A program made the position numbers and the translations under genes. From Eledone cirrhosa (lineage: Eukaryota), in contig OZ024759.1 in assembly GCA_964016885.1 (NCBI GenBank), positions 15,500,001 to 15,564,000 of the forward strand: a stretch of DNA of 64,000 bases, in the 5' to 3' direction. The notes beneath the pieces are model-generated. The model made no database searches. It was given only the letters and a program-made list of their open reading frames with translations, and had not been told where the DNA came from. Shown in pieces: positions 53,708-54,237 of the stretch (positions within the stretch are counted from its first letter, which is position 1; every line of letters starts with the position of its first letter).

Positions 53708-53914
53708 GTAGTATTAGTTATACTATTTATGGTTATGTAAACACAAAACCTTAAGCAGTTGTAAGTATTTTACACACACCCTAAATAGTGGTAGGCAGTA
53801 ATGTATTACTACCTTATTACCAGTAAGTTAAGTAGCTCAATGTAAAAACATCAGATGATTTACAGAGCAGTTATATGAAATATAAGAATCAAAGAACTGT
53901 TCAAAACATTATTG

Positions 53915-53961
53915 TGCTTACAGCTGTTTCCTCCAAACCGAGGTTTGGATTCTTCGGAGCA
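53915..53961 (-). ncRNA. Hammerhead motif (family C), mirror copy
   Basis: Reverse complement of 54137-54183. Confidence 0.65.
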
Positions 53962-54136
53962 ATTTATTAATGCATGGACAGTTATATGACCTCCTTTTCA
54001 GCCGAGAGACATACCAATACATATTCAAACATTGATACATATTCAAACATATTCAATGTGTATCAATGTTTGAATATGTATTGGTATGTCTCTCGGCTGA
54101 AAAGGAGGTCATATAACTGTCCATGCATTAATAAAT

Positions 54137-54183
54137 TGCTCCGAAGAATCCAAACCTCGGTTTGGAGGAAACAGCTGTAAGCA
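54137..54183 (+). ncRNA. Type I hammerhead motif with palindromic stem III and U4C core variant (family C)
   Basis: UGCU-CCGAAGA-A UCCAAAC CUCG GUUUGGA G-GAAACAGCUGUA-AGCA. Confidence 0.65.
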
Positions 54184-54237
54184 CAATAATGTTTTGAACA
54201 GTTCTTTGATTCTTATATTTCATATATATATGTATAC

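Follow-up and report, generated by a model that had tools for sequence, protein, structure and literature searches.

A head-to-head palindrome with a C4 hammerhead core in a (TA)n tract of Eledone cirrhosa, a likely PLE-type insertion

Introduction

The closest described relatives of the locus reported here are the minimal hammerhead ribozymes in the terminal repeats (pLTRs) of metazoan Penelope-like elements (PLEs). As characterised in PMC4209133, these have a helix II of 7-8 bp, a helix I of 4-5 bp and a palindromic helix III, carry an extra base after A9 and show low activity even as dimers; dual motifs are found on opposite strands, 100-700 bp apart. PMC3846280 gives head-to-head as the most frequent PLE inversion and explains it by self-priming, and PMC8557442 describes inverted, 5'-truncated copies with tails of 30-40 nt and a bias towards microsatellites, the (TA)n bias being best documented for Naiads, which are without canonical hammerheads. 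According to PMC11167929, a PLE protein in purified form both cleaves and extends the two strands of AT-rich DNA, starting from internal RNA sites, and insertion in vitro is normal with hammerhead mutants. PLEs are reported to make up 6.83% of the O. vulgaris genome (PMC13282606). Type I hammerheads are also carried by retrozymes, and those of animals have been argued to be PLE-derived (10.64898/2026.07.22.740005).

With regard to the ribozyme core, PMC3088659 cites a natural viroid U4C variant of considerably lower activity in vitro that was still infectious, and counts 10.1-11.1 among the most conserved hammerhead pairs. Mutants of the CUGA region are of low activity in the data of PMC9901934, the C3-G8 swap excepted.

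Here we describe a palindrome belonging to a repeat family, family C, in a 64,000-nucleotide stretch of Eledone cirrhosa contig OZ024759.1 (the window). With a probability of about 0.68, we regard it as a non-coding PLE remnant consisting of two 5'-truncated, hammerhead-bearing pLTR copies that lie head to head in (TA)n and likely arrived in one insertion. The palindrome itself is mostly explained as an ordinary PLE-type product, its insertion and ribozyme motif being of known kinds. The core is possibly a new variant of a putative ribozyme.

Structure of the locus

The inverted repeat is exact, with 168/168 arm bases identical around a 19-nt spacer and an overall length of 355 bp (Table 1), and its fold is well separated from that of 100 shuffled sequences (z = -37). 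A palindrome of about 350 bp with identical arms had been predicted and is borne out by these measurements. The span first given for it, 53711-54226, does contain the inverted repeat but is 516 bp long, and its first 161 nt are unpaired. This unpaired extension adjoins the left arm and is without counterpart at the right arm; it is repeat-family sequence rather than unique flank, as contigs from three sequencing runs (X1, X2 and X7, see below) pass from the extension into the arm.

The (TA)n tract abuts both 3' ends of the inverted pair, and no target-site duplication is readable in the flanking microsatellite; the window as a whole is rich in microsatellites, with 42% masked as low complexity. 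With no differences between the arms (0/168), their divergence is by arithmetic at most about 1.8% (95% bound), which supports the very recent origin originally proposed, although conversion between the arms could likewise keep them alike. Adjacent to the right microsatellite, a 214-nt element occurs twice less than 3 kb apart (54436-54649 and 57183-57396, 99.5% identity), with a related copy at 31615-31814; the pair is either a local duplication or an assembly repeat.

Table 1. Coordinates of the features of the locus within the window.
Feature	Position	Strand	Remark
Left (TA)n-type microsatellite	51090..53707 (start approximate)	.	probable insertion target
Unpaired 3' extension, left copy	53708..53871	-	left edge accurate to about 3 nt
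Left arm, 168 bp	53872..54039	-	hammerhead-sense on minus strand
Minimal type I hammerhead, left copy	53915..53961	-	position 4 at 53956
19-nt spacer	54040..54058	.	as linear family copies up to 54050, then junction-specific
Right arm, 168 bp	54059..54226	+	exact reverse complement of left arm
Minimal type I hammerhead, right copy	54137..54183	+	descriptor match and fold
Helix I, right copy	54137-40/54180-83	+	UGCU/AGCA, 4 bp
C3 and C4, right copy	54141 and 54142	+	core CCGAAGA
Unpaired A and unpaired G facing each other	54148 and 54167	+	base of helix II
Helix II, right copy	54149-55/54160-66	+	7 bp
Helix III palindrome ACAGCUGU, 8 nt	54171-78	+	self-complementary
Predicted cut, right copy	after A54179	+	cleavage triplet GUA
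ATATA, 5 nt, common to element and (TA)n target	54222..54226	+	right junction
Right (TA)n-type microsatellite	54227..54435	.	beyond right arm

Hammerhead motifs and RNA folding

Each arm contains a minimal hammerhead of the dimer type, as the original prediction had it, and both motifs share the CCGAAGA core, the self-complementary stem III and the UGCU/AGCA stem I that it had named. The hammerhead descriptor gave four matches in the window, compared with two in total across 30 block-shuffled windows. Apart from C at position 4, which is the sole mismatch, the core conforms to CUGANGA / GAAA / UH. The topology is that of type I, in which a helix I of about 2-6 bp (here 4 bp) is combined with a long helix II (here 7 bp), and the 8-nt palindrome in helix III is of the kind that a dimer requires. 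Helix I may extend beyond its 4 bp, past an internal loop. Helix II, for which 7-8 bp had been claimed, has 7 but not 8, since A54148 faces G54167 at its base: the closing G10.1-C11.1 pair is absent and a U-A pair follows. This second departure from the consensus was missing from the earlier description. Rfam returned no match at gathering score anywhere in the window, and no hammerhead family was among the 38 weak matches over the element, which were led by miRNA-type hairpins and all scored below gathering.

Separated by a gap of 175 nt, the motifs occupy opposite strands and point their 3' ends outward, leaving one sense motif per strand. Because they are mutually antisense, the arms are unable to dimerise in cis, and a cis-dimer between them was excluded. 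The predicted dimer fold of two sense copies reaches -33.7 kcal/mol, whereas a monomer reaches -8.9 to -9.7; the predicted two-strand minimum is -34.3 with an intermolecular helix III included. The motif is thus of dimer type, and its partner would be a tandem copy or another transcript. Its architecture suits cleavage by two sense copies together, such as the tandem pLTRs of the parent element would provide. In plus-strand read-through RNA, each motif base is predicted to pair with its mirror (mean probability 0.999), and since the 168-bp duplex would hide the motif, the hammerhead at this locus is a predicted passenger. C4 together with the open A/G at the base of helix II probably makes for weak cleavage.

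The perfect 168-bp duplex that read-through RNA would form also speaks for a co-opted host hairpin acting as a small-RNA source or an editing substrate. Such a role is hardly credible, however, for an apparently young element that lies in a microsatellite with many similar hairpins around it, that appears in folded form in no other run (0/4), and whose Rfam miRNA matches all fall below gathering scores.

Several other hairpins and hammerheads occur in the window. Two copies of a minimal hammerhead, at 517-554 (+) and 28640-28677 (-), have a palindromic helix III and a core that covaries to U3-A8; they lie within a 112-nt repeat that is 94.6% alike. The hairpins at 17207-17352, 30940-31210, 61314-61461 and 20017-20066 have hammerhead-like core boxes in one arm and no clear helix I, and are possibly a diverged or atypical hammerhead family. 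A family of short, GC-richer hairpins with a one-sided extension and (TA)n flanks (43357-43534, 55222-55386, 61549-61726 and 17033-17077) yielded no hammerhead. At 44081-44658, 150-bp inverted repeats (98% alike) surround an IS1595/Merlin-type transposase fragment at 44250-44459.

Family copies in public sequencing runs

A word search with 53711-54058 found part of this sequence in 15 runs from 11 studies under 12 organism labels, none recorded as RNA, and at least half of the sampled words were present in 7 of the 15 runs. Four of the 23 runs listed (X1, X2, X7 and X21) were aligned at 80% likeness, runs with a small share being left out. From X21, 4606 reads aligned at 80-100% likeness, 3296 of them less than 95% alike to the window; this is a RAD library, in which reads do not equal copies, and local alignment favours similar segments. 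Divergent copies in all four runs, together with the (TA)n on both sides of the element in the window, describe a dispersed family in AT-rich DNA, and no further copy was found within the 64-kb window. Subfamilies part ways behind 54000 and 53962, and the family seems to comprise several related lineages.

Contigs with zero differences to the element were present in X1 (53711-53962 and 53933-54050) and X2 (53711-53954 and 53943-54050), although X1 may be the source sample and does not count as independent evidence. Behind 54050, the alignment breaks off in the X1 and X2 contigs ending there and in 524 X21 reads, all of which run on, unfolded, into the same other sequence. The remainder of the spacer, 54051-54058, is specific to the junction and repeats short words found nearby. 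A further X1 contig of 1320 nt (depth 89) has only 37 nt in common with the element (53878-53914). X21 molecule ends at 53800 and 53961 were rejected as biological ends since they coincide with AATT, likely the cutting sites of the library.

The strict hammerhead pattern had no match in metagenome contigs and none in viral contigs. The 81 metagenome loci retrieved with a shorter pattern were attributed to chance, the longest alignment being 29 nt, and the one among them with a partner word had only a short one, with no matching helix II, and was rejected.

As an alternative, one linear copy could have been folded back on itself by an error of sequencing or assembly. Arms that are 100% identical would be expected from such an artefact, and the opposite-strand joint near 54050-54058 was found in none of the four runs, a count to be read with the facts that contigs drop rare forms, that X1 has a depth of about 3 and that the runs may stem from other individuals than the window. 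We nevertheless consider an artefact very improbable. The mirror ends at 53872 and leaves the 161-nt extension uncopied, the spacer consists of rearranged words rather than a clean turn, and the window is rich in inverted repeats with diverged arms (15 rows).

Status of the C4 core variant

It had been suggested that either one arm was copied after the core mutation or C4 is a natural variant of the family. This proved to be a false choice, as C4 exists in linear copies: position 4 lies within both X1 contigs and the second X2 contig and is C in each, and because these identical contigs do not fold, C4 is older than the palindrome. That both arms have it counts as a single event, the arms being copies of one sequence, and they were accordingly rejected as two independent witnesses for C4.

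Variation within the family was read from the 40 of 111 variant rows that were listed. Among these, none falls within 53925-53961 (4.4 expected, P = 0.007), a span made up of the core and helix II along with parts of helices I and III that was chosen after the table had been seen; over the whole motif, the same 40 of 111 rows include 3 where 5.5 were expected (P = 0.16). The depth of X21 over 53925-53961 is about 1500. The pooled X21 share is at least 26% in every row listed, except for two rows backed by two X7 contigs. If the rows rank by share, U4 would account for less than about a quarter of X21 reads, which is derived from the ranking rather than counted. Beyond the rows listed there are G-to-A changes in X1 (1), X2 (5), X7 (1) and X21 (8), any of which could be at position 4. 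Since the core and helix II are without variant rows among the 40 of 111 listed, C4 is probably the majority state in the family, and both C4 and the open base of helix II seem common across the family and several organism labels. The original prediction would have fallen with a family consensus in which the core or the stems are not conserved, and no such consensus came to light.

The centre of helix III does vary. A double change that keeps the palindrome occurs in two X2 contigs and one X7 contig, a single change that retains pairing by G-U wobble in 118/183 X21 reads of one direction, and a triple change by which 2 of the 8 pairs are lost in 217/268 X21 reads of the other direction, with 4 starts. 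The co-occurrence of changes within single reads is deduced from matching counts. This variation fits selection for dimer pairing but could be one event by common transitions.

Origin of the inverted pair

As a PLE remnant, the pair would be the product of one insertion by the element's own endonuclease and reverse transcriptase. The enzyme would cut AT-rich DNA, one cDNA would begin at the 3' end of the family, about 53708, and the other would begin 161 nt further in, at the 5-nt ATATA match to the target. Both cDNAs would then be joined at the 19-nt spacer via slippage and microhomology, to which junction self-priming would be an equivalent route. PLEs carry their pLTRs in direct or inverted order, and inverted ones are head-to-head, like the pair here; the element behaves as a PLE insertion would and probably is one.

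A different order of events would have a single PLE-type copy inserted first and its right arm added later by DNA-level fold-back, in which replication or repair would switch template and come back to (TA)n at ATATA. The slippage-like junction and the 5-nt microhomology agree with this, as does an extension that exceeds known PLE tails, and the identical unfolded 53711-54050 sequence in X1 and X2 could be the unfolded allele. On balance, a later fold-back is nonetheless unlikely: both 3' ends run straight into (TA)n, as expected of one insertion, head-to-head inversion is described as a regular PLE product (PMC3846280), and the window holds another hammerhead family that is laid out in the same way. 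That family is represented by an unrelated head-to-head palindrome at 61853-62129, with a minimal hammerhead per arm in the same outward orientation and arms that are 107/110 alike; a related copy lies at 59861-60040, and the left motif has the canonical core, the right motif a change of C3 to U. As its orientation is the same and its arms have diverged, the layout recurs in the genome and ages like real DNA.

The element's translations contain no long reading frame. Of the 195 frames in the window that passed the frame filter, GIY-YIG families matched none among the 13 + 118 scanned, shorter ones being excluded, and no PLE ORF was linked to the element. Truncated PLE copies are usually without the RT-GIY-YIG ORF. 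Two reverse transcriptase frames in the window, 23903-25867 (-) and 14440-16320 (-), match Pfam RVT_1 with LINE-type motifs and are presumably CR1/L2-like; the latter is 5'-truncated into a TA tract.

The carrier might also be a hammerhead-bearing MITE, SINE or non-LTR retrozyme. A long inverted repeat in TA recalls a fold-back MITE, retrozymes too have type I hammerheads, and the linked PLE ORF is lacking. Such a carrier is improbable all the same. MITE membership was rejected on the unpaired left end of 161 nt, where the inverted repeat is not terminal, and on the linear form of the other copies; retrozyme membership on the lack of tandem head-to-tail units, the window holding the inverted pair only. 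The long helix II and short helix I are moreover of PLE type rather than the canonical 6/4 bp, and animal retrozymes have themselves been argued to be PLE-derived (10.64898/2026.07.22.740005).

Comparison with known systems

The occurrence of C4 in both arms is trivial, and the interest lies in the core across the family. It is doubtful, though conceivable, that family C stands for a Penelope lineage, active in recent times and spread across several related species, with C4 and the open helix II base as native features of a ribozyme that still cleaves. If so, no CUGANGA descriptor would detect this core, PLE ribozymes would have been undercounted, and U4, held to be 'invariant', could be exchanged in ribozymes that act as dimers with the help of protein. 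Should C4 and the open helix II base be the norm and active, the hammerhead consensus would be wider and descriptor searches would have a blind spot; if they are the norm and inactive, this would be a natural case of a PLE lineage on the spread despite an impaired ribozyme, relevant to whether PLE hammerheads serve transposition or ride along (PMC8557442, PMC11167929). A weakened core would be able to spread, since a PLE with a dead hammerhead inserts normally in vitro (PMC11167929). The literature consulted on U4C, Penelope and octopus PLEs gave no C4 PLE family, although Lunse et al. (via PMC6765202) may list one, and two motifs searched for were absent from one supplement of the octopus repeat paper PMC13282606.

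Like family C, non-LTR retrozymes are non-coding, carry a type I hammerhead and have been argued to stem from PLE pLTRs (10.64898/2026.07.22.740005), but they are described there as tandem head-to-tail units, whereas the locus here is inverted with one motif per strand. The viroid U4C has the same core substitution; as cited in PMC3088659, it is a canonical motif for which no helix II defect is mentioned, and not a dimeric genomic repeat family.

The PLE minimal hammerheads of PMC4209133 resemble the motif in that helix I is short and flanked by AU-rich sequence, helix II has 7 bp, helix III is palindromic and an extra base follows A9, and the Drosophila willistoni row has the AGCU palindrome and the A at the cut that are seen here. 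They differ in that U4 is present in 56/56 PLE rows of Fig. S3, from a search that fixed the core boxes, whereas family C has C4; in the G10.1-C11.1 pair, which is missing here; in the extra G before GAAA, where 1/56 rows has an extra base; and in that the present element is without a linked ORF. Inverted PLE insertions (PMC3846280, PMC8557442, PMC11167929) differ from the locus in that no ORF lies between or beside its arms and in that its 161-nt extension, though likewise one-sided, is about four times the 30-40 nt PLE tail. They are alike in the head-to-head arrangement, the one longer arm, the AT-rich or microsatellite target and the microhomology at the junctions.
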